Shown in pieces: positions 3,055-24,125 of a DNA stretch of 64,000 bases. The stretch is from Mycobacteriales bacterium. GTDB lineage: Bacteria; Actinomycetota; Actinomycetes; Mycobacteriales; JACQDL01. Made by a program: the position numbers and the translations under genes. Each line of letters begins with the position of its first letter. Within the stretch, counting starts at the first letter, position 1. Location: the NCBI GenBank assembly GCA_035476575.1, contig DATILL010000020.1, positions 307 to 64,306 of the forward strand. The letters are read 5' to 3'. The notes beneath the pieces were generated by a model, which had not been told where the DNA came from, did not search any database, and saw only the letters and a list, made by a program, of their open reading frames with translations.

Positions 3055-3193
3055 CCGGCCCCTCTGTAGCGGTGTCGCCGAGGCTCGCTGGGCCCCGCGG
3101 CACGGGGAGGACCGGCAACGGGGGGTTCGTAAGAACGCGAAGCTGCTCACCGCAGTCGAACGGGAGACGTTCGTCCGGACATGCGTGCTGAGG
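3055..3193 (+). pseudogene. Relic of the upstream region plus first ~25 codons of a tyrosinase-like gene (paralogue of 29855-29992)
   Basis: Direct nucleotide alignment to 29855-29992, about 80% identity over the coding part (aagaacgcgaagctg...tgcgtgctga). The start codon is lost and the frame is broken. Confidence 0.6.
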
Positions 3194-3279
3194 TCCTTCT
3201 CACGTTCGTCTCACGCCGTGCTGGGCCGCCTCCTTGGCTCGGGCTGGACGGGCTAGCCCGAGAAACGAATGGGGCAGGG

Positions 3280-4641
3280 ATGTACGAGTACCGCCGCCAT
3301 ATACCGGTCGAACCGGACTGGCGCAGGCTGCCCGGCTGGCGCGACGTGACGACGGCCGAGTGGCGCAGCCCACAGTGGCAGCGCGCGCATTGCGTGAAGA
3401 ACGCGCGGCACCTGCGCGCGGTGTACGGCGACCTGGTCAGCGACGCCTTCTACGCCGACCTGGTGCGCGACCAGGCCGAAAGCGCCACCATGTCGCTGCT
3501 GCTACCGCCGCAGATGATCAACACGATGGTGCCGCACGCCCGGCCGGACACCGAGAGCCTGTACGCGGACCCGGTACGGCGGTACATGCTGCCGGTGTTC
3601 TCCGACCGGCATCCAGAGTGGCCGAGCCACCCGGTGGCCAGCCGCGACTCGCTGCACGAGTCGGAGATGTGGGTCGTCGAAGGGCTGACCCACCGGTACC
3701 CGACCAAGGTGCTGGCCGAGGTGGTGTCGACCTGCCCGCAGTACTGCGGCCACTGCACCCGCATGGATCTGGTCGGGCCGTCGACGACGCAGGTGGTCAA
3801 GCAGCGGTTCGCGCTGCGCCCGGTCGACCGGCTCAGCCAGATCGTCGCCTACCTCACGGCAACGCCGTCGGTGCGCGACGTCGTCGTCTCCGGCGGGGAC
3901 GTGGCGAACCTGCCGTGGCCGCGGCTCGAGGCGTTCCTCCTGCAGCTCCTCGACATCGACCACATCCGCGACATCCGGCTCGCCACCAAGGCGCTGATCG
4001 GCCTGCCGCAGCATTGGCTCACCGACGAGGTACAGGCCGGGCTCACCAGGGTGGCGACCACCGCGGTCCGGCGCGGGGTGCAGGTGGCCATCCACACCCA
4101 CGCCAACGCCGCGCAGCAGGTGACGCCGCTGGTCGCCGAGGCCTGCCGGAGCATGTTGGCAACCGGCATCCGGGACGTGCGCAACCAAGGGGTGCTGCTG
4201 CGCGGGGTGAACGACTCCCCGCGCCAGCTGCTCGACCTGTGCTTCGCGCTGCTCGACAGCGCTGGGGTGATGCCGTACTACTTCTACCTCTGCGACATCG
4301 TGCCGAACTGCGAGCACTGGCGGCTGTCGCTCGCCGAGGCGCAGGACCTGCAGGACAAGATCATGGGCTACCTGCCCGGCTTCGCGACGCCGCGGCTGGT
4401 CTGCGACGTGCCGTACGCCGGCAAGCGCTGGGTGCATCAGGTCACCCGCTACGACCGCGAGCTTGGCATCTCGTACTGGACCAAACACTTCCTGACCCTG
4501 GTGGACCGCGGCGACCCGGCCGCGCTGGACCTTCAGTTCGAGTACCACGACCCGGTCTACACCCTTCCCGACGCCGGCCAGGGCTGGTGGCTTGCCCAGC
4601 AGGCAGCGTCTCTTGCCAAGGACGGCACGACATGTGGCTGA
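3280..4641 (+). CDS. KamA-family radical-SAM amino acid 2,3-aminomutase (lysine/arginine 2,3-aminomutase-like)
   Basis: CPQYCGHCTRMD (CxxxCxxC radical-SAM cluster). SGGDV, LLRGVNDS and YYFYLCD blocks are typical of KamA. ATG 3280 is preferred over ATG 3181 because 3181 lies inside the tyrosinase relic. Confidence 0.9.
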   Translation: MYEYRRHIPVEPDWRRLPGWRDVTTAEWRSPQWQRAHCVKNARHLRAVYGDLVSDAFYADLVRDQAESATMSLLLPPQMINTMVPHARPDTESLYADPVRRYMLPVFSDRHPEWPSHPVASRDSLHESEMWVVEGLTHRYPTKVLAEVVSTCPQYCGHCTRMDLVGPSTTQVVKQRFALRPVDRLSQIVAYLTATPSVRDVVVSGGDVANLPWPRLEAFLLQLLDIDHIRDIRLATKALIGLPQHWLTDEVQAGLTRVATTAVRRGVQVAIHTHANAAQQVTPLVAEACRSMLATGIRDVRNQGVLLRGVNDSPRQLLDLCFALLDSAGVMPYYFYLCDIVPNCEHWRLSLAEAQDLQDKIMGYLPGFATPRLVCDVPYAGKRWVHQVTRYDRELGISYWTKHFLTLVDRGDPAALDLQFEYHDPVYTLPDAGQGWWLAQQAASLAKDGTTCG

Positions 4642-5948
4642 ACAACCCCGCCGCGCGGGCGGCGTTCCGGACCGCGCACGCCCAGCTCGAGCTGCTGGAG
4701 GCAGTCGGCTTCGCGCCCGAGACGGTACGGCAGATCCAGCGGGAGAAGCTGGCGCTGCTGTGGAACCGGGCCGCCCGGGTGCCGTACTACCGCGGCCTGC
4801 CCGGCCTCGCCGACCGCGACCTGGACCGGCTGCCGGTCACCGAGAAGGACGCGCTGAAAGCCCGGCCGGCGGACTTCGAGATCCCCGACCTGCCCGACGT
4901 CATCAAGTACTACCACAGCTCGGGGTCGTCCGGCCGGTCCACACCGACGCCCCGGCTGGCCGAGGACATCATCCACAACGTCATCGGCGTGGCGGGGCTC
5001 TGGCGGCGGGCGCTCGGGCGCACGCCGACCCGGGTGGCGTCGCTGCTGCCGTCGGACGTGGTCCCGGTCGGGGACTTTGTGGCGAGTGTGTGCGAGTACC
5101 TCGGCCACACCCTGCTGCGCTGCTACCCCTACAGCCAGGGCATCTGCGACTTCGACCGGCTCGACGCGGTGTTCAGCTCCTTCCGGCCAGAGCGGGTGTT
5201 CGCCGCGCCAGGCGTGCTCATGCAGTGGACCCGGGTGCTGAAGACCCGTGGCCGGCTGGCCGAGCTGCGCGCGTCGGTACGCACGATCATGCTGCTCGGC
5301 GAGGTGTGCCTGCCGGCGCAGCGGCGCAAGCTCGCGCGGGACTGGGGCGCCGACGTGCTCGACGGCTCCTACGGCAGCACCGAGACCGGCACCATCGCGG
5401 CAGCCTGCGAACGCGGCGGTATGCACCTGCTGCTGCCGGGGCACCTGGTGGAGCTGCGGACGCCGGACGGGATCGGGCCGGCGGTGCCGGGCGGGAGCGG
5501 TGAGCTGGTTGACACGACGCTGAACAACTACGCCCGGCCGCTGCTGCGGTTCGGCACCGGCGACCTCGTCGATGTGCCGGCCGAGCCGTGTCCCTGCGGG
5601 CTGCCGCTGCCGACCCTTCGGATACACGGCCGGCGCACCGACGGCATCGCGCTGCACGGGCAGGCGCTGGACGAGCACCTGGTCGGCTCGCTGGTCTACG
5701 ACGACCCGCGGCTCACCGGCTACCTCATCCAGATGCTCGGCGACGGCAGCGGCGGCCGGCTGGTGCTGGAGAAGGACGTCGACGTGGCCGCCGCGGACGA
5801 CGAGCTGGTGGCCGCGGTGAGCCGCCGGTTCGCCGCGACCGGGATCCAGTGGGACCAGGTGGTCGTGGTCAGCCAGCTCCCGGCCACCAGCAAGTCCGGC
5901 GGCAGCCAGAAGAGCTGGAAGCGGACGAACGTGGTGACACTGTCATGA
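4632..5948 (+). CDS. PaaK/coenzyme F390 synthetase-like adenylate-forming ligase
   Basis: In-frame 3' part of ORF 3234-5948 starting at ATG 4632, a 10-nt overlap with the upstream gene. HSSGSSGRSTP (P-loop-like SSGTTG variant) and YGSTETG motifs. Confidence 0.8.
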   Translation: MWLNNPAARAAFRTAHAQLELLEAVGFAPETVRQIQREKLALLWNRAARVPYYRGLPGLADRDLDRLPVTEKDALKARPADFEIPDLPDVIKYYHSSGSSGRSTPTPRLAEDIIHNVIGVAGLWRRALGRTPTRVASLLPSDVVPVGDFVASVCEYLGHTLLRCYPYSQGICDFDRLDAVFSSFRPERVFAAPGVLMQWTRVLKTRGRLAELRASVRTIMLLGEVCLPAQRRKLARDWGADVLDGSYGSTETGTIAAACERGGMHLLLPGHLVELRTPDGIGPAVPGGSGELVDTTLNNYARPLLRFGTGDLVDVPAEPCPCGLPLPTLRIHGRRTDGIALHGQALDEHLVGSLVYDDPRLTGYLIQMLGDGSGGRLVLEKDVDVAAADDELVAAVSRRFAATGIQWDQVVVVSQLPATSKSGGSQKSWKRTNVVTLS

Positions 5949-7663
5949 CCGTGCTGGGCGATGGGGGCGCCCGCCAGGGGGACGCGGACCTGTGGTGCAG
6001 CTACGCCGCGGTACGCACCCTGGCCTGGCTCGGGGACAACCCTGCCGATGCTGACGGGGTGGCCGGGTACCTGCGGTCGCGGCAGAACGCCGACGGCGGG
6101 TTCGCCTGGCAGCGCGGGCTGCCCTCGGACGCGTGGGCCACGTACTACTGCTCGCAGGCGCTGCGCGACCTGGGCGAGCCGGTGCCTCATCTTGACAAGC
6201 TGGGCGAGTGGCTGGACCAGCTGCGTACCGACGACGGCGGGTTTGCCATGACGCCCGGCCAGTCCGCGGACATCTGGGCGACGTACTACGCGTGCCGCAC
6301 CTACGCCGAGGCGCTGGGCGCGCCGGTGCCCCGGGTCGAGGCGCTGGCCGGGTGGCTCGCCGCGACCCAACACGAGTCCGGCGGCCTGGGCTGGCAGCCG
6401 GGGGACGACCGGCCGGACGTGCGGGCGGGGTACTACGGCGCGCTGGCCTGGCGAGCCGCCGTTAGCGGGGCCGGCACACGCGGCAACGCGGGAGCCGCCG
6501 GACCGCCGTGGCGTACCGCGGAGCTGGTCCGGTGGCTGCGCCATCAGCAGTGCCCGGACGGCGGGTTCGGGTTCGGTCCTGGGGCGGCCTCGTGCGCGTG
6601 GGCGACGTTCCGGGCGGTCCGGGCGCTGGCCGCGCTCGGGGCCGGGCCGGCCGACGTCGCCGCGGTGCGGCGGTGGCTGTCCGAGCGGTGGCTGCCCACG
6701 GGCGGGTACGAGCGATGGGTCGGCTACGGGCGGGCCGACGTATGGGCCTGCTTCTCCGCGGTCGGCGCGCTGGACACGCTCGGTCACCGGCTGACCGGTG
6801 CACGGCGAGCTGGGGTCGCCCGGTTCGTCCGTAGCTGCCAGCTTCCCGGCTCCGGCTTCACCTACCGCGACCCGGCAGCGGCGGGGGACAGCCTCGCCAC
6901 GGCGGCGGCGCTGATCACCGGTACCGGTCCGGACCGGGCAGCGCTCGCCGGCTGGCTGCACGCGGCGCACCTGCCCTACGAGGGCGGCATCATGTACATG
7001 CCCGGCCGCGGCGCCGAGGTCCGCTGCACGCTGTGGGCGGTCGAGGCGCTGGCCACTGTTGGCGAGCGGCTGGACGGTGCGCGGCTGGCCGGGTGGTTGC
7101 GGGACCTGCAAAACCCTGACGGCGGCTACGGGTACTGGCTCGGCCGCGGCTCGGACCTGGTGTCCACCGCCTCGGCGGTGGAGGCCACGCAGGCCGCCGG
7201 GCTGACCCCGGCCGAGGTGCTGGACGTCGCGGGCGCGCTGCGGTTCGTGGCCGGCTGCGCGGGAGACGGCGCGTACCGGCCGGTGCCGGGAGCGGTGCCG
7301 ACGCTGTCCGCGACCGCCCAGGCGGCCCGGGTGCTGCAGCTTCTCGGCGAGCCCGAGGCGGCGCTCCGGGTCGGGCGGAGCCTGGCAGCCTGGGCCAGCT
7401 CGCTCGGCGGGCACGCCAGCGCACCGCGCGGGCTGCCGGACCTGATGTCCACCTACCAGGCGGTGCTGACCCAGCAGGTGCTCGGCCTGCCGGTGGACCG
7501 GGCCGGGCTCGGCCGGCTGCTGGCGAAGGTGCGAACCGGCGCCGGCTACTCCTGGAGCCCGATCAGCCAGCAGCCGGCCGGCCCGCTGGCCGACTGCCTC
7601 GGTGTGCAGCTCGCCGCTGTCGCCGCCGGTGCCCCGGTCACGGTGCGCCGGCTGAACCTCTGA
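5945..7663 (+). CDS. Prenyltransferase/squalene-cyclase-type alpha/alpha-toroid repeat protein
   Basis: ATGA overlap start at 5945. At least 8 repeats of the QxxDGGF/W type (RQNADGGFAWQ, LRTDDGGFAM, HQQCPDGGFGF, LQNPDGGYGYW and others). Confidence 0.7.
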   Translation: MTVLGDGGARQGDADLWCSYAAVRTLAWLGDNPADADGVAGYLRSRQNADGGFAWQRGLPSDAWATYYCSQALRDLGEPVPHLDKLGEWLDQLRTDDGGFAMTPGQSADIWATYYACRTYAEALGAPVPRVEALAGWLAATQHESGGLGWQPGDDRPDVRAGYYGALAWRAAVSGAGTRGNAGAAGPPWRTAELVRWLRHQQCPDGGFGFGPGAASCAWATFRAVRALAALGAGPADVAAVRRWLSERWLPTGGYERWVGYGRADVWACFSAVGALDTLGHRLTGARRAGVARFVRSCQLPGSGFTYRDPAAAGDSLATAAALITGTGPDRAALAGWLHAAHLPYEGGIMYMPGRGAEVRCTLWAVEALATVGERLDGARLAGWLRDLQNPDGGYGYWLGRGSDLVSTASAVEATQAAGLTPAEVLDVAGALRFVAGCAGDGAYRPVPGAVPTLSATAQAARVLQLLGEPEAALRVGRSLAAWASSLGGHASAPRGLPDLMSTYQAVLTQQVLGLPVDRAGLGRLLAKVRTGAGYSWSPISQQPAGPLADCLGVQLAAVAAGAPVTVRRLNL

Positions 7664-7672
7664 GGACCGCAC

Positions 7673-8044
7673 ATGCCCACGACCACGATCGAGCTGCCGA
7701 TGGCGGACCCGCGTCTCGAGCGCCGGGTCGCCAAGGAGCTGAGCTTGTGGTGGCGTCGCCGAGGGGTCGACGTCAACCACGTGATCACCCGCTTCGCCAC
7801 CCTGCCCGCCGACCGCGTCTACAGCGGCCCGTTCCCGCTCGCCGGATCCTTCGCCCTGGTGAGCTGCCTGGTCTCGCGGGACCGCGACCACAGCTTCAAG
7901 CGGGACTACGCGCACGCGGTGCGAGCCGTGCTCGGGCCGCGGATCCCGCCGGACCGGGTGTTCGTCTCGTTTCACCCGACCGATCCGGCCGACCACTTCA
8001 CGCCCAACACCTGGGAGCAGGAGGACGTTCATGACCCGCGCTGA
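7673..8044 (+). CDS. Tautomerase-superfamily protein (Tautomerase_3/cis-CaaD-like, Pro1)
   Basis: Starts Met-Pro (MPTTTIELP...), about 120 aa. The beta-alpha-beta pattern resembles long tautomerase family members. Motif-level call only. Confidence 0.5.
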   Translation: MPTTTIELPMADPRLERRVAKELSLWWRRRGVDVNHVITRFATLPADRVYSGPFPLAGSFALVSCLVSRDRDHSFKRDYAHAVRAVLGPRIPPDRVFVSFHPTDPADHFTPNTWEQEDVHDPR

Positions 8045-8366
8045 GCTGACCGCGGCGGTGCGCGACACGGTAGCTGGCCTGATAGCACAGCCACTGGCCG
8101 CCGCCGACGACGAGCGGGCGCTCGCCGAGATCTCGTCCGAGCGGTACGACAGCCTCGCCGTGCTGGACTGCGTCGGCCTGGTCGAGCAGCGCTTCGGCGT
8201 CGAGGTCGACCTCGTCGAGGACGACCTGCGCACCTCGTTTCGCAGCGTCGCCTCGATCGCCGCGCTGGTCGAGCGCAAGCAGCACGACGCCGCCGTTCTC
8301 GGAGCCGCGTTCCCCGCGGCGCCCGGACCTTCGGTCGGCGCGCCGCCCGCGGCGGCCGGCCAGTGA
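8031..8366 (+). CDS. Free-standing acyl/peptidyl carrier protein
   Basis: 111 aa. The YDSLAVLD motif provides the phosphopantetheine-attachment Ser in a DSL context, and helix II follows (VGLVEQRFG). RBS GGAGCAGGAGGA. Confidence 0.7.
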   Translation: MTRAELTAAVRDTVAGLIAQPLAAADDERALAEISSERYDSLAVLDCVGLVEQRFGVEVDLVEDDLRTSFRSVASIAALVERKQHDAAVLGAAFPAAPGPSVGAPPAAAGQ

Positions 8367-9268
8367 GGGCGCGGGAGTTCGCGACCACTGGGACCACCGG
8401 CGAGCCGGTGCGGTGGACGCGTACCGCCGGGCAGATCCACGCTGAAGCCCGTCTCCTGGCGGAGCTGTGCGGCGCCGGCATCGACGGGATCGCCTGCTAC
8501 GCCCCGCCGGCGCACCTGTACGGGTACCTGATGGGGCGGGCGCTGCCGGAGCTGCTGGGCGTGCCGTGCCGGCAGGTCGGGCTGACCGACCCGCCGGCGG
8601 CCGCGCTGGCCGGGTGGCGGCGCCCACTGGTGGTCGCGCTGCCGGCGAGCTTCGCGCCGCTGGTCCGGGCGGTACCGGTGCTCACCGGCCTGGACCGGCT
8701 GGTCGTCGTACACAGCAGCGCGGCGCTGCCCCCGGCCGCCGGCCGGCTGCTCGGCGCGCTCGACGGTACGGCCCGGCTGGTCGAGCTGTTCGGGTCGACC
8801 GAGACCGGGCTGATCGGCTGGCGCCACGGCGTCAACGACACCGACTGGACGCTGGCGGCCGACGTGTGGTTCGGCGCGGGCCTGGGGGCGGGGGTGGAGC
8901 GGCTGCGGGTGCGCAGCCCGCGCCTCGCCCGCCGGGCCGGGATGCCACAGCCGGCCGAGATCGAGACCGACGACCTGGTCCGGGTCCTCGACGGCCGGAC
9001 GTTTCGGTGGCTCGGGCGGCGCAGCCGCCTGGTCAAGGTCAACGGCCGGCGGGTCAACCTCGACCACGTCCACGCCCAGCTCGCCGACGCGGTCCCCGAC
9101 GTCGCCTTCGGCTGCCGGCCGGAACGGGACGAGCTGCGCGGGGAGTGGTTCAGCGTGTGCGCAGAGACCGCCGACCCGCGGCTGCTCACCGCGCTGGAGG
9201 ACGCCGCCCGTGCCCTGCCGCCGTGGCAGCGGCCGCGCATCGTTGAGCCGCTGAAGGAGCCGGCATGA
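8363..9268 (+). CDS. Short AMP-dependent (ANL-family) ligase
   Basis: GTGA-coupled start. TTGTTGEPVRW (A3-like) and FGSTETGLIG (A5-like) motifs. Only 301 aa, so it lacks much of a canonical N-terminal subdomain. Confidence 0.65.
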   Translation: MRAREFATTGTTGEPVRWTRTAGQIHAEARLLAELCGAGIDGIACYAPPAHLYGYLMGRALPELLGVPCRQVGLTDPPAAALAGWRRPLVVALPASFAPLVRAVPVLTGLDRLVVVHSSAALPPAAGRLLGALDGTARLVELFGSTETGLIGWRHGVNDTDWTLAADVWFGAGLGAGVERLRVRSPRLARRAGMPQPAEIETDDLVRVLDGRTFRWLGRRSRLVKVNGRRVNLDHVHAQLADAVPDVAFGCRPERDELRGEWFSVCAETADPRLLTALEDAARALPPWQRPRIVEPLKEPA

Positions 9269-10428
9269 CCACCCAAACCGAGGCGCTGCGCGAGCTGGTG
9301 CGCCGGGCCGCCGCACAGCACCCGTACTTCGCCCGCAAGTACGCCGGGCTCGACCTCGACGGCGACTTCGACCTCGCCGTGGTGCCGGAGATGACCCGCG
9401 AGGACGTCACCGCGTCGGCGCTGAAGGCCGCGCGGACGGTGCCCCGGCCCACGGGGGCGTACCTGTTCACCAGCGGGGGCAGCACCGCCGAGCCGAAGAT
9501 CGCCTGGATACCGTGCGAGATGCACCTGCCGGCGCTGCTGCCGCACTGGCGGCCGCTCGGCCCCGACGACGTGTTCGCGAACCTGGCCATGCCGGGCCGG
9601 CTGTGGTCGGCGCACTACTTCTACAACCGGGTCGCCGAGCACTGCGGGGCCGACGTCATCGGCCTCGGACATGTGGCTGAGGACGAGCTGGCCCAGTGGC
9701 TGGGCTTCTTGCGGCGCCACGGCACCACTGCGCTCGCCGGTACGCCGTCGCAGCTCGCCAGCGTGCTGCGGACCGGACACCCGCTGCTCGGCCAGCTCCG
9801 CGCGGCGATCTTCTTCGGGGAGGCGTGCGATCCCGAGCTGCTGCGGCTGCGCGACAGCCACGCGCCCCACCTGGGCCTGTGGGGCAACTACGGCTCCACC
9901 GAGACGTGGGTGATCGGCCACAACGGCCCGGACTGCGCGGTGGACACCTTCCACGTGCTGCCGTACCAGCACGTCGAGCTGGTCGACGGCGCGGTGCTGG
10001 TCAGCACGCTGCACGAGGCGGCGGTGAGCCCGGTCATCCGGTACCGCATCGGCGACCGGGCCGAGCTGGCCGAGTGCCGCTGCGGCCGGGGCGGGCTGGC
10101 GCTGAGGGTGCTCGGCCGCGAGGGAGCGCTGATCAAGTTCGCCGGCACGCTGGTCAGCCCGTGGGAGCTGGTCGAGCTGGCCCGCATCGCGCCGGGCGTC
10201 CAGGCAGCACAGGCGGCGCTGGTCGCCGACGGGCCGGCGGAGGTCCTGGAGATCCGGCTGGTCGGGAGCGGCGCGGACGCCGGTGCGGTGCGCGAGCGGC
10301 TGCTGGGCTCCCAGATTGACCTGCGGTTCGCGCTGCGCGGCGAGGAGGACACCTTCCGGGTGCGGCTGGTGGACCGGTTGGAGACCAGCTCGCGGACGGC
10401 CAAGACTCCCACGCTGGTGCGGCAATGA
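9265..10428 (+). CDS. PaaK/F390 synthetase-like adenylate-forming ligase (second copy)
   Basis: ATGA-coupled start, RBS GAAGGAG. FTSGGSTAEPK and YGSTETW motifs. Related to the protein at 4632-5948. Confidence 0.75.
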   Translation: MTTQTEALRELVRRAAAQHPYFARKYAGLDLDGDFDLAVVPEMTREDVTASALKAARTVPRPTGAYLFTSGGSTAEPKIAWIPCEMHLPALLPHWRPLGPDDVFANLAMPGRLWSAHYFYNRVAEHCGADVIGLGHVAEDELAQWLGFLRRHGTTALAGTPSQLASVLRTGHPLLGQLRAAIFFGEACDPELLRLRDSHAPHLGLWGNYGSTETWVIGHNGPDCAVDTFHVLPYQHVELVDGAVLVSTLHEAAVSPVIRYRIGDRAELAECRCGRGGLALRVLGREGALIKFAGTLVSPWELVELARIAPGVQAAQAALVADGPAEVLEIRLVGSGADAGAVRERLLGSQIDLRFALRGEEDTFRVRLVDRLETSSRTAKTPTLVRQ

Positions 10429-14285: not shown

Positions 14286-14288
14286 GCC

Positions 14289-15620: not shown

Positions 15621-16787
15621 GTGATAGCGCTTACCTCGCTGCGAGGGGCAGCGCAGGCCGCATCGGACTGGCCGGCCCAGGCCGACCTCGCCAGCGTGGC
15701 GACCGAGCTGGGCAGGCGGCCGCCGCTGGTCGCCGCCGCCGACTGCCGATCACTACGGGACCGGCTCACCGAGGTCGCGGCCGGCCGGGGCTTCCTGGTC
15801 CAGGCCGGCGACTGTGCCGAGCTGTTCGACGAGGTCTCGGCCCACACGACCACACGCAAGGCCGCCCAGCTCGCCGAGCTGGCCGACCTGGTCGAGGCGC
15901 GCAGCGGGCTGCCGGCGGTGAGCGTCGGCCGGATCGCCGGCCAGTTCGCCAAGCCGCGGTCGCACCAGACCGAGACCGGGCCGGGTGACCTCGAGCTGCC
16001 GGTCTACCGCGGCGACGCGGTGAACGGCGCGGCCGCCACGCCCGCCGCCCGCCGGCCCGACCCGCGCCGGATGCTGACCGCCTACGACAAGTCCGCGGTC
16101 GTGCTCGGCCACCTGGCCGGCAGCTACCCGACGGTGTACGCGAGCCACGAGGCGCTGCTGTTGCCGTACGAGACCGCGCTGCTCCGCACCGACGCCGCCA
16201 CCGGTTCCCGGTACGGCTCCTCGGCGCACCTGCTGTGGGTGGGGGAGCGGACCCGCCAGCCGGACGGCCCCTGGGTGGAGCTGCTGGCCGAGGTAGCCAA
16301 CCCGGTCGCGGTGAAGCTCGGCCCGACCGCGACCCCGGCCGACGTGACCGCGCTGCTGCGGCGCCTGAACCCGGCCGGTGAGCCGGGCCGGCTGGTGTTC
16401 ATCGCCCGGATCGGCGCGGACCGGGTGGCTGACGTGCTACCGGACCTGGTCGCGGCGGCCGGTACCGCCCAGCCGGTATGGATCTGTGACCCGATGCACG
16501 GCAACACCGTCCGCCACCCGGACGGCCGCAAGACGCGGGCGCTCGCGGACATCCTGGCCGATGTCAGCGGGTTCGTCCGCGTGCTGCGGGGCGCTGGCGG
16601 GCACCCCGGCGGTATCCACCTGGAGACCTCCCCGGACGACGTCACCGAGTGCGTCGGCAGCCGGGCCGACATCGCCGGCGCGTCGCTGCCGCGGTACTGG
16701 ACCGGCTGCGACCCCCGGCTCAACCCCGGCCAGGCCCGGGCCGTGGTGGCCGCCTTCGTCGAGGCGCTGGACTCATGCTCGGGCTAG
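15621..16787 (+). CDS. Class II 3-deoxy-7-phosphoheptulonate (DAHP) synthase
   Basis: RIAGQFAKPRS and CDPMHGNT class II DAHPS motifs. At 388 aa it is short, like pathway-dedicated copies. Confidence 0.85.
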   Translation: MIALTSLRGAAQAASDWPAQADLASVATELGRRPPLVAAADCRSLRDRLTEVAAGRGFLVQAGDCAELFDEVSAHTTTRKAAQLAELADLVEARSGLPAVSVGRIAGQFAKPRSHQTETGPGDLELPVYRGDAVNGAAATPAARRPDPRRMLTAYDKSAVVLGHLAGSYPTVYASHEALLLPYETALLRTDAATGSRYGSSAHLLWVGERTRQPDGPWVELLAEVANPVAVKLGPTATPADVTALLRRLNPAGEPGRLVFIARIGADRVADVLPDLVAAAGTAQPVWICDPMHGNTVRHPDGRKTRALADILADVSGFVRVLRGAGGHPGGIHLETSPDDVTECVGSRADIAGASLPRYWTGCDPRLNPGQARAVVAAFVEALDSCSG

Positions 16788-18334
16788 ACACGCTGACCCC
16801 GCGCGAGGTGGCCCGGCTCGCCCGCCAGCCCGGGGCCCGGATCGAGCTGCCGGAGCCGGCCGCGGACCGGATGGCCGCCTCGGTGCTGCTGCGCGACGAG
16901 CTGGTCGCCACCGGCCAGCCGATCTACGGCGTGACGACCGGCTTCGGGGCCAACAACATCAACCACATCTCGGCCGCCCGGGCCACCGCCTTGCAGGCCA
17001 ACCTGGTCGAGTACCACCTGGTCGGCAGCGGCCCGCTCGCGGCGCCCGAGGTGGTCCGGGCGACCATGCTGATCCGGGCCAACTGCCTCGCCCGCGGCCG
17101 GTCCGGGGTACGGCCGGAGGTCGTGCGGCTGCTGCTCGACTGCCTCGCCCACGACATCCTGCCGCCGATCCCCGAGCGCGGCTCGGTCGGCGCGAGCGGT
17201 GACCTGGTACCGCTGTGCTACCTGGCGAACCTCCTGGTCGGCCGGGGCGAGGCGGTGGTCGCGGGACGGTGGCAGCCGGCCGACCAGGCGCTGCTGACCC
17301 ACGGGCTGCGGCCGCTCGCCCTGCAGCCGAAGGAGGCGCTCGGCCTGATCAACGGCACGTCGTTCATGGCCGGCTTCGCGGTCCTCGCGGCGGCCGGCGC
17401 GGCCGAGCTGGCCCACGCCGCCGAGGTGTGCACCGCGCTCACGGTCGAGGCGCTGCGCGGCAACCGCGGCCCGTACGAGCCGGACACCCACCGGCACAAG
17501 CCGCACCCGGGCCAGCAGCGCAGCGCCGCGGCGGTACGCGGGCTGCTGGCCGGCTCGACCCTGGCCTGCGACCACGACGAGGTGCTGCGGGCCAACCCCG
17601 CCCTCGCCGGCCGGGCGCACCAGCGGCTGGACCACCCGATCCAGGACCGGTACTCGCTGCGCTGCGCCCCGCACGTGATCGGCGTGCTGCGCGACACCCT
17701 GGACTGGGTCGACCGCTGGCTGCACGTGGAGATCAACTCGACCAACGACAACCCGCTGTTCGACCCCGACACCGGCCAGGCGCACAGCGGCGGCAACTTC
17801 TACGGCGGCCATGTCGGCCTCGCGATGGACACCCTCAAGGTGGCCGTGGCGAGCGTGGGCGACCTGCTCGACCGGCAGCTCGCCCTGGTGGTCGACGACA
17901 AGTACAGCAACGGCCTGCCCGCCGGCCTGGTGACCACCGGCGGCGGGCTGCACCACGGCTTCAAGGGCGTGCAGCTCGCCTGCTCCGCGGTCGTTGCCGA
18001 GGCGCTCAAGCTGGGCATGCCGGCCACCGCGTTCTCCCGCTCTACCGAGGCACACAACCAGGACAAGGTGAGCATGGGCACGATCGCCGCCCGCGACGCC
18101 CGCACCGCCGTGGAGCTGGTGGGCCAGGCGACCGCGCTGCACCTGACCGCGCTGTGCCAGGCCGTCGACCTGCGCGGGGTGGACCGGCTCGGCGCCGGCA
18201 CCCGCGCCGCGTACAACCTGGTACGCAAGCACGTCGGCTTCGTCGACCGGGACCGGCGGCTCGACACCGAGGTGGCCGCGCTCGCCGAGGCGATCGCCAC
18301 CGGGGCGCTACGAGAGGCGGTCGGCGATGCGTGA
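16775..18334 (+). CDS. MIO-dependent aromatic amino acid ammonia-lyase/aminomutase (HAL/PAL/TAL/TAM family)
   Basis: GSVGASGDLVPL (Ala-Ser-Gly MIO triad), YGVTTGFG, NDNPL. ATG 16775 overlaps the DAHPS gene by 13 nt. Confidence 0.9.
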   Translation: MLGLDTLTPREVARLARQPGARIELPEPAADRMAASVLLRDELVATGQPIYGVTTGFGANNINHISAARATALQANLVEYHLVGSGPLAAPEVVRATMLIRANCLARGRSGVRPEVVRLLLDCLAHDILPPIPERGSVGASGDLVPLCYLANLLVGRGEAVVAGRWQPADQALLTHGLRPLALQPKEALGLINGTSFMAGFAVLAAAGAAELAHAAEVCTALTVEALRGNRGPYEPDTHRHKPHPGQQRSAAAVRGLLAGSTLACDHDEVLRANPALAGRAHQRLDHPIQDRYSLRCAPHVIGVLRDTLDWVDRWLHVEINSTNDNPLFDPDTGQAHSGGNFYGGHVGLAMDTLKVAVASVGDLLDRQLALVVDDKYSNGLPAGLVTTGGGLHHGFKGVQLACSAVVAEALKLGMPATAFSRSTEAHNQDKVSMGTIAARDARTAVELVGQATALHLTALCQAVDLRGVDRLGAGTRAAYNLVRKHVGFVDRDRRLDTEVAALAEAIATGALREAVGDA

Positions 18335-19673
18335 CCCGCGGGCTGCGGTCCGGGAGTACTCCACCGGCCGGCACCGCGCCGAGGCCGCACCCCGGCCGCC
18401 CCGGCTCCTGATGCAGCCGCTGCGCGAGCGGCTGCGGCTGATCGCGGCGGGCGAGCTGGCCGTGGCGGAGTGGCTCGCCGCCGCCGACGAGTGGAGCGCC
18501 ACGGCCGACGAGCGGTACCGCGCCTGCGTCGAGCTGCGCCCGGCCGGGCAGCCGGTACGGCTCGCCGTCAAGGACACCATCGACGTGGCCGGCTTCCCCA
18601 CCCGGCTGGGGCTCCGCCGGCACCGGCACTACCCGCGCCGGTCCGCTGTGGCGCTGCGCGGGCTGCCGGTCAACGCCAAGGTGGTGACGACCGAGCTGAA
18701 CATCGGCATCGGCTCCGGTTGCGTCAACCCGTACTTCCCGCACATCGACCCGGCCGGCTCCAGCACCGGCTCCGGGGTGGCCGTGGCGGCCGGGATCTGC
18801 GACGTGTCGCTCGGGACGGACGTGCTCGGCTCGGTGCGCTGGCCGGCCGGGCGGTGCGGCGTCGTCGGCCTGCGCACCACGCACAGCGAGCGGCGGCTGG
18901 CCGGGGTCTTCCCGCTGTCGCCGTCGATGGACGCGCCCGGCTGGGTGGCCCGGGCCGCCGACGACCTGGCCGTGCTGGCCGACCGGATCGGCCTCGACGG
19001 CGACGGCGCGCCCGGACAGTACCGGATCGGGCTGGTGCGGGAGGTGCTCGACGGCGGGTGCGAGCCGGAGATCCTGACCGCGCTGGAGCTGTGCCACGCC
19101 GCGCTGGCCGACGCTGGCCACCGGGTCGAGGGGGTACGGCTGGGCGAGCTGTGGCGATGTCGAGGCATGGCGTGGGACCTGTGCGCCCGCGAGGCCTGGG
19201 ACGGGTACCAGGTCTGGCGGCAGTGGATCTCCGACGACCTGCTCGACTCGACCCGGCGTGCACTCGAGGCGGGCGCGCGGATCGGCGACGGGCGTTATGC
19301 CGAGCTGCGCGCCGAGCAGCAGCGGCAGCGGGCCGGTGTGGCCGAGCTGTTCGCCCGCCAGGAGGTCGACGCCTGGCTGCTGCCGCTCGACCCGGACGTG
19401 CCGTGCCCGCCCGACGCGGCCGAGCGTGTCACCGCCACCAGCATCCCGACCCCGGCGGACGACCCGGCTGGCTATGACCGCGCGGTCGGCTACACGCCGG
19501 TGGCGAGCTTCGCCGGCCTGCCGGCGATCACCTTCCCAGTCGGCCGTGGCACCACGACGGGCGCGCCGCTCGCGATGCAGCTCGTCGGCCCGCCCCGATC
19601 CGACCGTAGGCTGGTCGCGCTGGCCGCCGACGTTGGCCGGCGCCTCGGCGACCTCGGCTTTGTCCCGCGCTGA
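18327..19673 (+). CDS. Amidase-signature enzyme (second copy)
   Basis: VKDTIDVAGFPT, AGSSTGSGVAVAAG, GTDVLGSVRWPA. Alternative start at ATG 18411, where the N-terminus aligns with that of 10425-11699. Confidence 0.8.
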   Translation: MRDPRAAVREYSTGRHRAEAAPRPPRLLMQPLRERLRLIAAGELAVAEWLAAADEWSATADERYRACVELRPAGQPVRLAVKDTIDVAGFPTRLGLRRHRHYPRRSAVALRGLPVNAKVVTTELNIGIGSGCVNPYFPHIDPAGSSTGSGVAVAAGICDVSLGTDVLGSVRWPAGRCGVVGLRTTHSERRLAGVFPLSPSMDAPGWVARAADDLAVLADRIGLDGDGAPGQYRIGLVREVLDGGCEPEILTALELCHAALADAGHRVEGVRLGELWRCRGMAWDLCAREAWDGYQVWRQWISDDLLDSTRRALEAGARIGDGRYAELRAEQQRQRAGVAELFARQEVDAWLLPLDPDVPCPPDAAERVTATSIPTPADDPAGYDRAVGYTPVASFAGLPAITFPVGRGTTTGAPLAMQLVGPPRSDRRLVALAADVGRRLGDLGFVPR

Positions 19674-19692
19674 AACACCGAAGGAGAAGCAC

Positions 19693-20418
19693 GTGCCACG
19701 TACCGTCCTCGTCACCGGTGGCGCGACCGGCATCGGCTTCGCGGTCGCCACGACGTTCGCCCAGGCCGGCGACCGGGTCATCATCACCGGTCGCCGCGAA
19801 CAGGTGCTCACCGAGGCCGCCGGCCGGCTAGGCGCGACCCCGCTCGCCTTCGACGCCACCGACCCTGAGGCGGTCACCAAGGCGGTCGCCGCCCTGCCCG
19901 ACCGGGTGGACGTCGTGGTCAACAACGCCGGCGGCAACACCGACTTCGCCCAGCCGGACGCCGCCGACGACGACCTGTCCGCGCTCGCGGCGAGCTGGCG
20001 GGCCAACCTGGAGGCCAACCTGGTCTCCGCCGTGCTCGTCACCGCCGCGCTCACCCCGCGGCTGCCCGACGGCGGCCGGGTGATCACGATCGGCTCCATC
20101 GCGGCCCGTACCGGCGCCGGTTCCTACGGCGCCGCGAAGGCGGCGGTCGAGGCCTGGACCACCAGCGTCGCCGCCGAGCTCGGCCCACGCGGCATCACGG
20201 CCAACGTCGTCTCGCCCGGGCTGACCCTCGGCACCGAGTTCTTCGGCGACCGGCTCACCGTGCAGCGCCAGCAGCGGCTGATCGACGCCACGCTGGTCAA
20301 GCGGGCGGGCACCCCGGACGACGTCGCGGCCACCGTGTTCTTCCTCGCCTCGCCAGCGGCCCGGCATCTCACCGGACAGGTCTTCCACGTCAACGGTGGC
20401 GCCTATCTCGGGCGGTGA
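19693..20418 (+). CDS. Short-chain dehydrogenase/reductase
   Basis: GTG start 7 nt after AAGGAG. TGGATGIG cofactor motif and SYGAAKAA (YxxxK). Confidence 0.85.
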   Translation: MPRTVLVTGGATGIGFAVATTFAQAGDRVIITGRREQVLTEAAGRLGATPLAFDATDPEAVTKAVAALPDRVDVVVNNAGGNTDFAQPDAADDDLSALAASWRANLEANLVSAVLVTAALTPRLPDGGRVITIGSIAARTGAGSYGAAKAAVEAWTTSVAAELGPRGITANVVSPGLTLGTEFFGDRLTVQRQQRLIDATLVKRAGTPDDVAATVFFLASPAARHLTGQVFHVNGGAYLGR

Positions 20419-20767
20419 TAGGGGGAGAACGAGCCTGGCGACGGCCGCCACGCCACCTATTGGTGCCAAGGGTCGTCCGGCATGGGCAATTGAGTGCTGT
20501 CCGTTCCCTTTGTGGCTGCGGCACTGGCTAGCTTGCGCAAATTCTAAGGTAGCTCGACGTATCTCAACGTAGAGCTGGCAGCTCTGTTCATACGGTGTCA
20601 AGACCAACGGGGATGTTCGCTGCTGCCGGAGTCCGACCGGTGCCCATCATCGGCTCTGGCTCTTGTACGTCAACGCCGACGCCGCTGGCCCGCCAGATGG
20701 GACCACGGTTAAGACGCTTACCGTGCCGTGGCGACGATCCGGCTCACTACCAGTGATAGGGGATTTT

Positions 20768-23700
20768 ATGCGTCGCTCACGTGCCCTCGCCGCCGGGCTG
20801 GCGGCGGCAGTCGTCACGGTTCTGGCCACCGCGGCGGGCAGTAATCATTCGACGAGCCCGCCAGGCACGGACACAAGTCCCGGCCTTGCTGCTTATCAGG
20901 TCGACATTCACGACTCGCACGCATTGCGACTGCTCGCTCAGGCGGGCAACGACATGGAGGAAGGCGCCGGCCGCGACGGCCAGGCCGAGGTCGTGGCCCT
21001 TCCGGGCCAGGTGCATAAGCTCCGGGCGGCCGGCCTGACCGTGACGCTCAAACCCACCACCGCGGCCGGCGCCGGTCCCAGGCCCGACGGCAGCTACCAG
21101 GTCTGGCGCCCCTACTACGACCGCACCTTCGTCGGTACTGAAGGCGGCCGGCCGCGGGAGACGCTGTATGAGGAGCTTCAGCGGATCGCCGCGGAGCACC
21201 CGGACATCGTCAAGCCGGAGATCATCGGAAGGTCCCTGCTGGGCAAGCCGATCCTGGCGCTGCGGATCACCAAGGACGCCCGCAAGCCGGCCAACCGGGA
21301 CGGGTCGCGGCCCGCCGTCTTGTACAGCGCGACCCTGCACGCCCGGGAATGGCTGGCCACCGAGCAGGCCCGCCGGCTGGTGCACCTGCTGGTCGACAAC
21401 TACGGCCACAGCGGTCCGGCCAAGGCCGTCGGCGGCGAGAACGTCGCCGGGCTCACCGGCGCCACGCTGACCCGGCTGGTGGACACCCGGGAGCTGTGGT
21501 TCGTCCCCGTCGCCAACCCGGACGGGTACGACCACACCTTCACCCCGGGCAACCGGCTGTGGCGCAAGAACATGCGCGACACCGACGGCGACGGCGTCGT
21601 CGACACTGGCGATGGCGTCGACCTGAACCGTAACTTCGGGGGCCACTGGGGATTTGATAATGAGGGCTCCAGCGACGACCCCTCGGGGGAGATCTACCGC
21701 GGTTCCGCCGCCTTGTCCGAGCCCGAGGTCAAGGCGGTGGACGGGCTGCTTTCCCGCATCCGGTTCGCCTTCTTGGCCGACTACCACATCACCCCGCTCG
21801 GGCAGCGGCTGCTGTACGGCGTCGGGTACCAGATCCACACCGACTCACCGGACGACCTGATCTCCCGGGCGCTGGCCGGTACCGACCGCAAACCCGCGAT
21901 CGGCGGCAACCCGCCCGGCGCGCCTGATCCGTACTCGCCCGGCCTGCTGGCCTTCCCGTTCCGCAACAACGGCATCCTCGGCGACGCCGCACACGCGGTC
22001 CACCATGTCCTGCCGTTCACCGTCGAGGTGGACGCCGCGAACCCGGACCGGGGCGGTGGGTCATCGATCTTCGAGTTCCAGGACAGCGAGGCCGACGTAC
22101 AGCAGTCGTTTGTGAAGAACATCCCGTTCGCGCTGGACGTCGCCCTGTCAGCGCCCGACCCGGCGAACCCGGTGTCGCACCTGGGCAACACCGCACCGGC
22201 GTTCGAGCTGCACCCGTTCGCCGTCTCCTACGGCGACCCGCAGCCGGTACGGGTCACCGTCAAGCGGTCGCTCGGCCCGGTGCGGATGCACTGGCGCATC
22301 AACGGTGGGCGTGAGCACGCCGCCCGCACCCGCGAGTACCAGGGCGGGGAACGGTACGGCGACTCCTACAACATCTACTACCACGAGATGCGCGGCACGG
22401 TGACCGGCACCCGGCCGGGTGACCGGGTGACGGTGTGGTTCACCGCCGGCGGGAAGCGGTCGGAGTCGTTCCGGTACTCGATACGGTCCGACAGCAACAA
22501 GCCGGTGCTGATCATGGCAGCGGAGGACTACTCCGGCCAGCCCGGCAGCACCCTGGAGTCCCCGCCGTACGCCAACCGGACCCGGCCGAACTACCTTGGC
22601 TACTACACGGCGGCGCTGAGCGCGAACAAGATCCCCTTCGACGTGTACAACGTCGACGCCGAGCGGCGGACGGCGCCCGACCCGTTGGGGGTGCTCGGGC
22701 ACTACCGGGCGGTCATCTGGTACACGGCCAACGACAGCCTCGTCCGGGCCGTCGGCGTTCCAGGCTCGACCGGTACCGGCAAGCTGGCCGGCGATGAGAT
22801 CCTCGCGGTCCGCGACTACCTCAACGACGGCGGCAAGGTGCTCTACACGGGGCAGAACGCGGCGCTGCCGCAGCTCCTCAACGCCCAGTACAACCCGGGC
22901 GGCGAGCCACCGTACTGCCACGCCTCGGCCAGCAGTCCCGGCACGGTCACCACCTGCACCACGCTCACCGACGACTTCCTGCAGTACTGGCTAGGCGCGT
23001 ACAGCCACATCGACGCGGCCACCACGAAGGCCGAGGTGTCGGCGCTCCACCTCGAGTCGACGTCCGGCGGGGCGAGGTACCGGCTGAACGGGGTGGGCTC
23101 CGCCGACAACCAGGAGCACACCTACTCGGCCGTGACCACGTCGAGCATCCTGCCCGTGCCGAAGTTCCCGCAGTTTGCCTCGCAGGTCTCGGTTGGGCTG
23201 GCCGGGCCGAGCGGGTTCGACCCCGTCACCGGGTCGCGGTACGCCGTCGCGGAGTCGGACAACAGCGGCTACCAGCGGCTGCGCCGTACCGTCGACCTGA
23301 CCGGCGCCACGTCGGCGGAGCTGTCCCTGAAGCTCTCCTACGACGTGGAGAAGGACTACGACTACGTGATCGTCGAGGCACACCACGTCGGCCAGGACGA
23401 CTGGACCACCCTGCCGGACGCCAACGGGCACACCTCGACCAGCGTCGGCGGGTCGTGCGATGAGAACCTGGACACCATCCACCCGTTCCTGGACCACTAC
23501 CAGACCAACCCGGACAAGCGAAAGGTCGACTGCACCGGCACCGGCACCACCGGGGTCTGGCAGGGCGCGACCGGTAACTCGCGCGGCTGGCAGGACTGGC
23601 GGGTCGACCTCAGCCGGTACGCCGGCTCGCAGGTGGAGGTGGCGATCAGCTACGTGCAAGACTCGGGGGTTACCGGGCTCGGGGTGCTCCTCGACGACGT

Positions 23701-23968
23701 GACGGTCCGAAAGGACGGCGCGATCGCCGAGCAGACCTCCTTCGAGGACGGGCTGGGCGGGTTCACCGCCGGGCCGGCACCGGACGGGTCCGCGGCCATC
23801 ACCGACCACGCCTGGACGTCGCGGCCGACGGTCGGCTTCGCCGTCGGCACGGGCATCCAGACCCCGCACTCGGTCTACTGGGGCTTCGGCCTGGAGGGCA
23901 TCGCCGGCGCGGGCGACCGTGCGCAGCTCATCGGTCAGGCCCTGCGACACCTTGGAGTGGCACGCTAG
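20768..23968 (+). CDS. Secreted M14-family zinc carboxypeptidase with a large C-terminal extension
   Basis: Signal peptide MRRSRALAAGLAAAVVTVLATAAG. LHAREW and NPDGY M14 motifs. 1066 aa. Confidence 0.8.
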   Translation: MRRSRALAAGLAAAVVTVLATAAGSNHSTSPPGTDTSPGLAAYQVDIHDSHALRLLAQAGNDMEEGAGRDGQAEVVALPGQVHKLRAAGLTVTLKPTTAAGAGPRPDGSYQVWRPYYDRTFVGTEGGRPRETLYEELQRIAAEHPDIVKPEIIGRSLLGKPILALRITKDARKPANRDGSRPAVLYSATLHAREWLATEQARRLVHLLVDNYGHSGPAKAVGGENVAGLTGATLTRLVDTRELWFVPVANPDGYDHTFTPGNRLWRKNMRDTDGDGVVDTGDGVDLNRNFGGHWGFDNEGSSDDPSGEIYRGSAALSEPEVKAVDGLLSRIRFAFLADYHITPLGQRLLYGVGYQIHTDSPDDLISRALAGTDRKPAIGGNPPGAPDPYSPGLLAFPFRNNGILGDAAHAVHHVLPFTVEVDAANPDRGGGSSIFEFQDSEADVQQSFVKNIPFALDVALSAPDPANPVSHLGNTAPAFELHPFAVSYGDPQPVRVTVKRSLGPVRMHWRINGGREHAARTREYQGGERYGDSYNIYYHEMRGTVTGTRPGDRVTVWFTAGGKRSESFRYSIRSDSNKPVLIMAAEDYSGQPGSTLESPPYANRTRPNYLGYYTAALSANKIPFDVYNVDAERRTAPDPLGVLGHYRAVIWYTANDSLVRAVGVPGSTGTGKLAGDEILAVRDYLNDGGKVLYTGQNAALPQLLNAQYNPGGEPPYCHASASSPGTVTTCTTLTDDFLQYWLGAYSHIDAATTKAEVSALHLESTSGGARYRLNGVGSADNQEHTYSAVTTSSILPVPKFPQFASQVSVGLAGPSGFDPVTGSRYAVAESDNSGYQRLRRTVDLTGATSAELSLKLSYDVEKDYDYVIVEAHHVGQDDWTTLPDANGHTSTSVGGSCDENLDTIHPFLDHYQTNPDKRKVDCTGTGTTGVWQGATGNSRGWQDWRVDLSRYAGSQVEVAISYVQDSGVTGLGVLLDDVTVRKDGAIAEQTSFEDGLGGFTAGPAPDGSAAITDHAWTSRPTVGFAVGTGIQTPHSVYWGFGLEGIAGAGDRAQLIGQALRHLGVAR

Positions 23969-23984
23969 GGCGGCGGCAAGAAGT

Positions 23985-24026
23985 GGGCGGTTGGTGCCGG
24001 CAGCGGCCGTTACCAACCGCCCTTCT
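23985..24026 (+). terminator. Hairpin terminator candidate after the M14 gene
   Basis: GGGCGGTTGGT (23985-23995) pairs with ACCAACCGCCC (24012-24022) and is followed by TTCT. Lies 17 nt after the stop codon. Confidence 0.45.
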
Positions 24027-24030
24027 ATCA

Positions 24031-24125
24031 GATGCTGAAGGCGACATCGTCAAACCCCGGCGCGCCGGTGGCAGGCCAGTACATGAGTGCTTGAAACTAC
24101 AGGTCGACACCCCACCGCCATGGCC
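24031..24125 (+). pseudogene. Relic of tyrosinase-like gene codons ~24-55 (complementary to the relic at 3055-3193)
   Basis: gatgctgaaggcgacatcgtcaaaccccggcgcgccgg...ccagtaca aligns to 29986-30040 of the intact gene. Contains stops and indels. Confidence 0.5.

Follow-up and report, generated by a model that had tools for sequence, protein, structure and literature searches.

In mycobacteria and their relatives, illegitimate integration of foreign DNA is attributed to Ku/LigD end-joining, and the insertion of cluster-bearing islands through illegitimate joining is expected in actinomycetes. Specialised-metabolite clusters are enriched in genomic islands, and in actinomycetes the islands that bear them are found as synteny breaks without mobility genes, for example in the Synteruptor study (PMC11195616). 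We analysed a locus of this kind in a window of 64,000 nucleotides, taken from a short-read metagenome contig that belongs to a Mycobacteriales metagenome-assembled genome. The locus holds a biosynthetic operon of 17 genes, the first product of which is named lysine 2,3-aminomutase by the sources, followed by a gene for an M14 peptidase. On either side lie relics of a tyrosinase-fusion gene, an intact copy of which is found further downstream (Table 1).

Table 1. Features of the locus, with positions numbered from the first nucleotide of the window.
Feature	Position	Strand	Support or remark
Relic 1 of the dead second tyrosinase-fusion copy: upstream region (3048-3118) and codons 1-24 (3119-3190)	3048-3191	+	
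Putative inserted block of 20,841 bp with the biosynthetic operon and the M14 peptidase gene	3192-24032	+	
KamA-family radical SAM 2,3-aminomutase, first cluster gene	3280-4641	+	NCBIfam TIGR00238/TIGR03820, below cut-offs
PaaK/BagE-like AMP-dependent ligase	4632-5948	+	
Prenyltransferase/terpene-cyclase-like alpha-alpha toroid protein	5945-7663	+	PF00432, E 3e-35
Two small proteins, 123 and 111 aa	7673-8366	+	No family match; conserved in homologous clusters
Two AMP-binding-type ligases, 301 and 387 aa	8363-10428	+	
Amidase 1	10425-11699	+	PF01425, E 2e-37
ATP-grasp ligase 1	11696-12988	+	PF13535
MFS exporter	12990-14285	+	PF05977/PF07690
ATP-grasp ligase 2	14289-15581	+	Weak match, L-amino-acid-ligase C-terminal domain
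Class II DAHP synthase	15621-16787	+	PF01474, E 4e-123
Aromatic amino acid ammonia-lyase/aminomutase	16784-18334	+	PF00221, E 1e-165
Amidase 2	18327-19673	+	Homologous clusters in L048, L045 and L032 end here
Short-chain dehydrogenase (SDR)	19657-20418	+	ORF overlaps the end of amidase 2
Spacer between operon and M14 gene, 349 nt, 61% GC	20419-20767	.	
M14 zinc carboxypeptidase, 1066 aa, InhA-like MAM domain	20768-23968	+	PF00246, E 1.5e-46; PF20773
Stable hairpin after M14 gene, probable terminator	23985-24022	+	-41.7 kcal/mol, z -4.2
Relic 2: dead-copy codons 25-41, two 1-nt indels	24033-24083	+	blastn E 1e-8
Low-GC (58.5%) 1.2-kb segment bracketed by relics 2 and 3; NPCBM-domain ORF at 24203-25078	24084-25296	-	
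18-nt match (16/18) to 3' arm of the M14 hairpin, just 5' of relic 3	25262-25279	+	1/500 shuffles
Relic 3: dead-gene codons 25-42 a second time, without gaps	25297-25350	+	E 6e-13
DDE transposase fragment	25865-26776	-	PF13701
Second DDE transposase fragment, opposite orientation	28684-29415	+	
Intact tyrosinase-fusion gene, 934 aa (CDS 29918-32722), and the 70 nt upstream of it matched by relic 1	29848-32722	+	

A blastn comparison of 29600-30400 with the window matched relic 1 to 29848-29990 at 74% identity over 144 nt (E 5e-20); comparison of the whole window with itself recovered the match at E 4e-18. The coding part aligned without gaps over codons 1-24, with 56 of 72 nucleotides identical (78%), close to the 80% of the original prediction, and similarity extended through the upstream part (52/71 positions, 74%). 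Beyond this, upstream of 3048, homology was at shuffle level. Relic 1 has no start codon (ATG is replaced by CGG), and tblastn aligned GVRKNAKLLTAVERETFVRTCVL from it with codons 2-24 of the intact gene (19/23 amino acids). Relic 2 corresponds to 29988-30038 at 85% identity. It had been drawn as 24031-24125, of which 24033-24083 was upheld but 24084-24125 (codons ~42-55) was not, its score being equalled by 96 of 500 shuffles. Formal alignment, the check proposed for the two flanking relics, thus found both significant, at E 5e-20 and 1e-8. Relic 3, which the earlier reading had overlooked, is 88% identical to the intact gene and 92% identical to relic 2.

Relics 1 and 2 keep the strand and order of the intact gene and contain adjacent, non-overlapping parts of it, with the boundary between codons 24 and 25. 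In tblastn, the relics matched residues 2-42 of the tyrosinase domain of the intact copy, a member of the type-3 copper tyrosinase family (PF00264, E 2e-41) in which residues 1-288 match solved PDB tyrosinases. Throughout the tyrosinase-fusion family, the motif C-V-(L/M/S)-(M/L)-K-A-D runs across codon 24/25 without a gap (21/21 genomic and 120/120 database homologues), and in some homologues, as in the relics, position 25 is Leu. Because the relics abut at a point where the family has no gap, we conclude that one copy was split by 3192-24032. Two independent breakpoints would be expected to agree within ~2 nt in a 2.8-kb gene with a chance of roughly 0.002. The description of the relics as complementary halves of one copy therefore stands for the end at codon 24 and the start at codon 25, but they are not halves: codons 25-42 occur twice, and a tblastn search of the window with the 934-aa protein found relics 1-3 only, the remaining ~890 codons being absent. 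What survives of the dead copy is codons 1 to ~42 only.

The codon differences in relics 1 and 3 comprise 11 non-synonymous and 8 synonymous changes. The biases of the two relics are opposite (7 synonymous versus 5 non-synonymous in relic 1, 1 versus 6 in relic 3), so that the counts show no consistent sign of purifying selection on the relics and do not demonstrate past selection on the dead copy. Assignment of the relics to another lineage of the family was also abandoned, because the N-terminus is too conserved: 31 of 41 residues agree with the resident gene and 32 of 41 with the best other homologue.

At the junctions, TGCTGAGG (3186-3193) and TGCTGAAGG (24033-24041) are both present, and had been read as a direct repeat compatible with a target-site duplication. 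Since relics 2 and 3 have CTG-AAG-GCG, the sequence in the dead copy was most likely GTG-CTG-CTG-AAG. The target's own CTG-CTG then explains much of the 8/9-nt repeat and reduces the possible overlap to 2-6 nt, maybe only 2 (TG). The repeat thus holds as sequence, but a target-site duplication is unconvincing, and the overlap would fit microhomology joining rather than transposon-style duplication. We rejected a model of an in-frame insertion of six codons with CCTTCT on each side as the duplication, as no family member has a gap at codon 24/25. The left edge of the block lies 88 nt before the first cluster gene; the right junction lies 10 nt beyond the M14 hairpin, in agreement with a block that ends just past it. 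Scanning the junctions for promoter and terminator consensus sequences returned nothing informative, and an Rfam scan of the window gave no match. CCCTCTGTAGCG was discarded as a candidate regulatory motif, as it is not conserved upstream of other family members.

The block has a GC content of 0.732 (window, 0.719). Pfam scans found no recombinase, integrase or transposase among its genes, consistent with the predicted lack of an integrase at its ends, and no tyrosine or serine recombinase in the flanking ORFs as far as 29.8 kb; the 2.7-30 kb stretch lacks an integrase, and the window has no tRNA gene. Terminal inverted repeats were not detected at the block ends (best score 17, shuffle mean 17.2), and no direct repeats there exceeded shuffles.

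Insertion of the block by illegitimate joining into a second tyrosinase-fusion copy is probably the best explanation of these features. The genome would formerly have carried, downstream of the LprG-P55-h134-h170 genes, a second copy of the 934-aa gene, of which the promoter region and the 5' end at least were present; we assume that a full-length paralogue stood at this site. A 20.8-kb segment, which carries the 17-gene operon and, at least as the segment stands now, the M14 gene, would have been joined between codons 24 and 25. To judge from the junction sequence, this joining would have been non-site-specific, by illegitimate end-joining or by recombination over microhomology of a few bases at most (TG to TGCTG), with no part played by a recombinase, attachment site or transposon end. 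The split copy would have been dead ever since. Later, a piece of the junction together with codons 25-42 would have been duplicated around the low-GC segment, the remaining ~890 codons would have been lost, and insertion-sequence debris would have built up. The relics, their complementarity, the lack of mobility genes and the cluster's mobility among genomes are shown; we infer the direction (insertion, as opposed to another rearrangement), the mode of joining, the timing and the order of these events, as well as the arrival of cluster and M14 gene in one piece.

Homologous clusters in four other loci (L025, L026, L116 and L117) share 55-80% amino acid identity and begin with the same KamA-family gene. 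The left flanks of L025, L116 and L117 are unrelated, and the three loci extending as far as the 3' end (L048, L045 and L032) continue after amidase 2 with unrelated genes or an IS110 transposase. No tyrosinase relic was found beside the homologous clusters, and the 88 nt before the first cluster gene had no homology to the other clusters. A shared start with unrelated flanks fits a unit that moves between contexts. The proposed search for the block elsewhere with other flanks thus found homologues of the cluster, in different contexts, but not of the M14 gene.

The M14 carboxypeptidase is probably secreted, given its hydrophobic N-terminus. It had been proposed that cluster and peptidase were acquired together and are functionally linked, for example through product maturation or prodrug processing. 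An M14 homologue was present in 0/10 homologous cluster loci (the seven named above, L027, L035 and L042), so there is no conserved co-occurrence. With this result and the 349-nt spacer, the functional link is unsupported, and acquisition together lacks comparative support; joint arrival is possible but unproven. The 61% GC of the spacer and its length suggest that the M14 gene may have a promoter of its own. The cluster (3192 to ~20418) and the M14 gene could instead have arrived separately, or one of them could already have been linked to the target, with the peptidase as a bystander. We regard this two-step assembly as unlikely, though the most plausible of the alternatives. It draws on the missing M14 homologues, including at L048, L045 and L032, where the 3' end is covered, on the spacer that parts operon from peptidase and on the lower GC of the M14 gene (0.699 versus 0.741 for the cluster). 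GC3, however, is alike (0.90 versus 0.90-0.95), and between the SDR and M14 genes there is no relic, repeat or scar save a 10-nt repeat compatible with chance. Moreover, the same two complementary relics enclose both cluster and M14 gene, which makes a single insertion more economical.

A single insertion need not have happened in this genome. The gene could have been split in a donor, and relic 1, block and relic 2, perhaps with the whole 2.7-29.8 kb, imported afterwards, so that the relics would represent a foreign orthologue. The tyrosinase-fusion family is patchy across many phyla and has a different context at every locus, which suggests that it is itself mobile; the relics are just 74-88% identical to the resident gene, and relatives vary in the region 3' of the P55 transporter gene. 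Against this, relic 1 and the resident gene still agree at 74% of positions in their 70-nt non-coding upstream regions, while inspection of other family members revealed no obvious similarity upstream; this argues that the two have a close common origin. We found no donor-like sequence and consider a split in a donor improbable. The comparison with relatives, which was to reveal an empty site or an uninterrupted second copy, found neither; the nearest relatives available (P55, 82%; tyrosinase, 72-73% amino acid identity) are non-syntenic. Genes downstream of the closest P55 transporter relatives differ from those here, the neighbour genes tested from the P55 relative loci, including MalQ, had no match in the window, and the closest tyrosinase homologues lie in other contexts.

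The right-hand side of the block bears on the insertion model as well. In its favour, the 18-nt match beside relic 3 indicates that this relic, with 16/18 nt of the hairpin arm, derived from the already formed junction of block and relic. Against it, the linker between hairpin arm and unit differs between the versions at relics 2 and 3, so simple duplication is an insufficient explanation. In a further reading, the ~51-bp unit of codons 25-42 might be viewed as an attachment site for successive elements (the block, the low-GC segment and a 4.4-kb IS-rich segment), with the 5' end of the gene regenerated on the right. Three direct copies of the unit have nearly the same boundaries (24033-24083, 25297-25350 and 29990-30043), and the 18-nt motif is shared just left of two of them. 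Yet the lack of an integrase and of a tRNA gene reported above counts against a site-specific hotspot, the joint of relic 1 and block has no copy of the unit, which leaves the block not flanked by units on both sides, and none of 21 other loci of the family has a 5'-end relic within 10 kb. We give this reading very little credence. The same applies to codons 25-42 as a recurrent landing site, recombinase-less or trans-acting, taken jointly with the milder version in which the dead copy's promoter drives the operon. PADLOC defence models matched none of the tyrosinase fusion, the M14 peptidase, the NPCBM protein, h134 and h170.

Chance similarity is contradicted by E-values of 5e-20 to 1e-8, and misassembly, conceivable for a short-read metagenome contig, is effectively refuted by an independent assembly (Logan contigs of SRR9648393) in which both junctions recur at 99.99-100% identity, the left one in contig L115 and the right one in L113, which equals window 15929-25726 at 99.99%; the two together have a negligible probability.

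We return to insertion into the second tyrosinase-fusion copy. The relics set the outer limits of the block to the nucleotide, which helps to define the extent of the cluster for heterologous expression, and caution is called for before the adjacent peptidase is assigned to the pathway. This type of cluster moves between genomes as a unit without mobility genes of its own.

Among described systems, integrative and conjugative elements, their actinomycete forms (ICE/AICE) and prophage-like islands resemble this locus in having foreign DNA within a gene, short junction repeats and, nearby, three copies of a ~51-bp unit. Unlike ICE/AICE, the block has no integrase, relaxase, replication gene or tRNA target, there is no unit on its left, and in place of the identical core of attL and attR the junctions overlap by perhaps as little as 2 nt. 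The 8/9-nt repeat at both junctions resembles an 8-9-bp target duplication of a composite or unit transposon; however, neither IS copies nor inverted repeats occur at the block ends, and the transposase fragments are 1.8 kb away, beyond the block. As in illegitimate integration, the target is split precisely, with 0-6 nt of overlap and no recombinase or sequence specificity. The block is an ordinary genomic-island scar of a past DNA insertion and reveals no new mechanism. It resembles the islands of the Synteruptor type, being a ~20-kb block with a complete operon, unrelated neighbours, no integrase and homologous clusters in varied contexts, and differs from them in that the target is kept here as two complementary pseudogene pieces, which locate the insertion point to the codon.

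A blastn search of the window with its segment 29600-30400 as query returned three matches apart from self (see table). They represent pieces of a second, broken copy of the tyrosinase-fusion gene, and the two relics of the original prediction, one on each side of the biosynthetic operon and M14 carboxypeptidase gene, are real by this measure. Relic 1 aligns without gaps to the intact gene over 24 codons (56/72 nt identical), though its start codon has become CGG, and its upstream 70 nt share 74% identity with the region upstream of the intact gene; homology upstream of 3048 was not above shuffles. The right relic could not be extended to 24125 as proposed, since 96/500 shuffles were as good, and relic 3 (codons 25-42) was absent from the original prediction. 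No further pieces of the second copy were found in the whole 64 kb by tblastn with the full 934-aa protein. The best explanation, and one we consider probable, is insertion of the block into a second tyrosinase-fusion gene.

Window coordinates of the relics, the candidate inserted block and neighboring features
Feature	Position	Strand	Details
Small proteins	1789-2193; 2212-2724		134 aa; 170 aa
Relic 1	3048-3191		matches 29848-29990; 74%, 144 nt, E 5e-20
Block	3192-24032		20,841 bp
Operon	3280-20418		
10-nt direct repeat GTGATAGGGG	20415-20424; 20754-20763		SDR stop codon; M14 ribosome-binding site
M14 carboxypeptidase gene	20768-23968		1066 aa
M14 3' hairpin	23985-24022		-41.7 kcal/mol, z -4.2
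Relic 2	24033-24083		matches 29988-30038; 85%, two 1-nt indels, E 1e-8
Segment between relics 2 and 3	24084-25296		1.2 kb, 58.5% GC
NPCBM-domain ORF	24203-25078	minus	within that segment
Relic 3	25297-25350		25298-25348 matches 29991-30041; 88%, no gaps, E 6e-13
DDE_Tnp_1_4-type transposase fragment	25865-26776	minus	right of relic 3
DDE_Tnp_1_4-type transposase fragment	28684-29415	plus	left of intact gene
Inverted match	25964-26025; 28987-29049		63 nt, shared by the two fragments
Tyrosinase-fusion gene (intact)	29918-32722		934 aa
Type I-E cas genes; 61-nt-period repeat array	~36290-44180; 45460-47505		array follows the cas genes
Internal repeats	61665-62423		about 120-nt period, 67% identity; within long ORF 59435-62500

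As had been proposed, relics 1 and 2 are complementary pieces: the last codon of relic 1 is codon 24 (GTG CTG), and relics 2 and 3 both open with CTG AAG GCG, codon 25 onwards. The corresponding protein motif, C-V-(L/M/S)-(M/L)-K-A-D-I-V-N-P-G, is ungapped in 21/21 genomic and 120/120 best database homologues, and several tyrosinase-fusion homologues have Leu at position 25. Because of this, the dead copy would most likely have read GTG-CTG-CTG-AAG, with relics 1 and 2 joining without loss of a codon. The direct repeat reported at both junctions, TGCTGAGG at 3186-3193 and TGCTGAAGG at 24033-24041, is present, but it is mostly explained as the target's own CTG-CTG, seen in two registers, since the dead copy itself likely read CTG-CTG. 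The truly duplicated bases may be TG alone or, were the dead copy one codon short, up to about 6 nt. This pattern fits microhomology or end-joining rather than target duplication of a fixed length; the joining of block to target would have been illegitimate rather than site-specific. Inverted and direct repeats at the block ends do not exceed chance level, and no integrase or transposase was found among the block genes. The hairpin predicted 3' of the M14 gene was recovered, ending 10 nt before the junction.

The block (GC 0.732, versus 0.719 for the window) contains a single closely packed operon encoding, in order, a KamA-family radical SAM aminomutase, a PaaK/BagE-like ligase, a prenyltransferase-like toroid protein, two small conserved proteins, two AMP-binding ligases, an amidase, an ATP-grasp ligase, an MFS exporter, a second ATP-grasp ligase, a class II DAHP synthase, an aromatic ammonia-lyase/aminomutase, a second amidase and a short-chain dehydrogenase (SDR). 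An NCBIfam search of the operon proteins gave no match at or above the curated cut-off; we infer as a candidate product a small amide-linked metabolite from beta-amino and aromatic acids. The M14 carboxypeptidase has an InhA-like MAM domain and a hydrophobic N-terminus resembling a signal peptide, and lies beyond a spacer of 349 nt (61% GC). Copies of GTGATAGGGG bracket 329 nt of this low-GC spacer, which could reflect a small insertion between two formerly coupled genes, or chance.

Homologous clusters were found in ten loci (55-80% aa identity). The first cluster gene is the aminomutase in L025, L026, L116 and L117, and the left flanks are mutually unrelated (L025, sigma factor and choline kinase genes; L116, a gene for a BNR-repeat protein; L117, one for an acetyltransferase). 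Amidase 2 forms the 3' end in all three loci extending that far; next come DUF2397 and SbcC-like genes of the opposite strand (L048), an IS110 transposase gene (L045) or one unrelated gene on the opposite strand (L032). In none of the ten loci was there an M14 or tyrosinase homologue or a relic. By these comparisons, the constant first gene, varied flanks and lack of M14 argue that the cluster acts as a context-changing unit of which M14 is not a conserved member. The predicted functional link between cluster and M14 is thus unsupported, and their joint acquisition is possible but unproven. A single insertion is the economical reading, because both lie between relics 1 and 2; given the homologous loci, however, the two may have arrived separately, in two steps. 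Overall, the inserted-block prediction stands as to real and complementary relics, but the right relic is shorter than proposed, the repeat is not convincing as a target duplication and the functional link to M14 lacks support.

To the right of the block the sequence is a mosaic. Identity between relics 2 and 3 is 92% and, by our reading, they have in common five bases that are derived compared with the intact gene. Directly left of relic 3, 16/18 nt match the 3' arm of the M14 hairpin (score reached in 1/500 shuffles). Relic 3 consequently looks like a copy of an already existing block/relic-2 junction, although the 13-17 nt linker from hairpin arm to unit (the ~51-bp piece spanning codons 25-42) differs between the two, which simple duplication does not account for. 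IS debris, the two transposase fragments, lies between relic 3 and the intact gene, as do a DUF11-like fragment and an acetyltransferase gene. The three copies of the unit would suit an attachment site or hotspot, but this alternative is weakened by the absence of a recombinase gene, of a unit copy on the block's left side and of any tRNA gene in the window, and by 5'-end relics within 10 kb in 0/21 other family loci.

The tyrosinase-fusion family, with 467 members in the databases (best identity 72-73%), is scattered across Rokubacteria, Acidobacteriota, Chloroflexia, Bacteroidota, Proteobacteria and other groups and has a strongly conserved N-terminus. The Pfam match of the resident protein is limited to residues 41-257 (PF00264), and PADLOC gave no match for it. 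Its gene adjoins a ParE/Phd toxin-antitoxin pair and type I-E cas genes (Cas3, Cse1, Cse2, Cas7, Cas5), followed by what is presumably a CRISPR array; farther along, a long ORF contains internal repeats. Family gene neighborhoods differ in each locus examined (L004-L024, L111), that of L111 apparently being of haem biosynthesis. By inspection, upstream regions of other members bear no obvious likeness to the window's; set against this, the upstream identity of relic 1 suggests that it shares a fairly close origin with the resident gene.

On the left flank, the nearest P55 transporter relatives (82% aa; L108-L110) have different, variable downstream genes, and the neighbor genes tested from these loci, MalQ included, had no match in the window. 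The region after LprG-P55 appears variable in relatives too. L108 and L109, from one run (ERR1303295; Logan versus ENA assembly), encode an identical P55 protein followed by differing small genes (VbhA-like and methyltransferase genes versus hypotheticals). In the window, two neighboring small proteins between the LprG-P55 pair and relic 1 have alike N-termini and are probably paralogous; their Pfam matches are just weak, F-box-like and under cut-off. Neither P55 relatives nor tyrosinase-fusion homologues led to an empty site or an uninterrupted second copy.

The window belongs to a metagenome contig of 123.6 kb (ENA ERZ27256868, k141_4174021), and NCBI names a Mycobacteriales MAG as the source of its proteins. 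Contigs of an independent Logan assembly (SRR9648393) recovered the left junction, from LprG to codon 144 of the first cluster gene (L115), window 15929-25726 at 99.99% (L113) and 25701-40684 at 100% (L003); therefore, the arrangement is not an artefact of a single assembly.

The chief use of the relics is to delimit the inserted block at both of its outer ends. As a phenomenon this is of a known kind: genomic islands that carry clusters but lack mobility genes, in which these clusters are stated to be enriched (PMC11195616).
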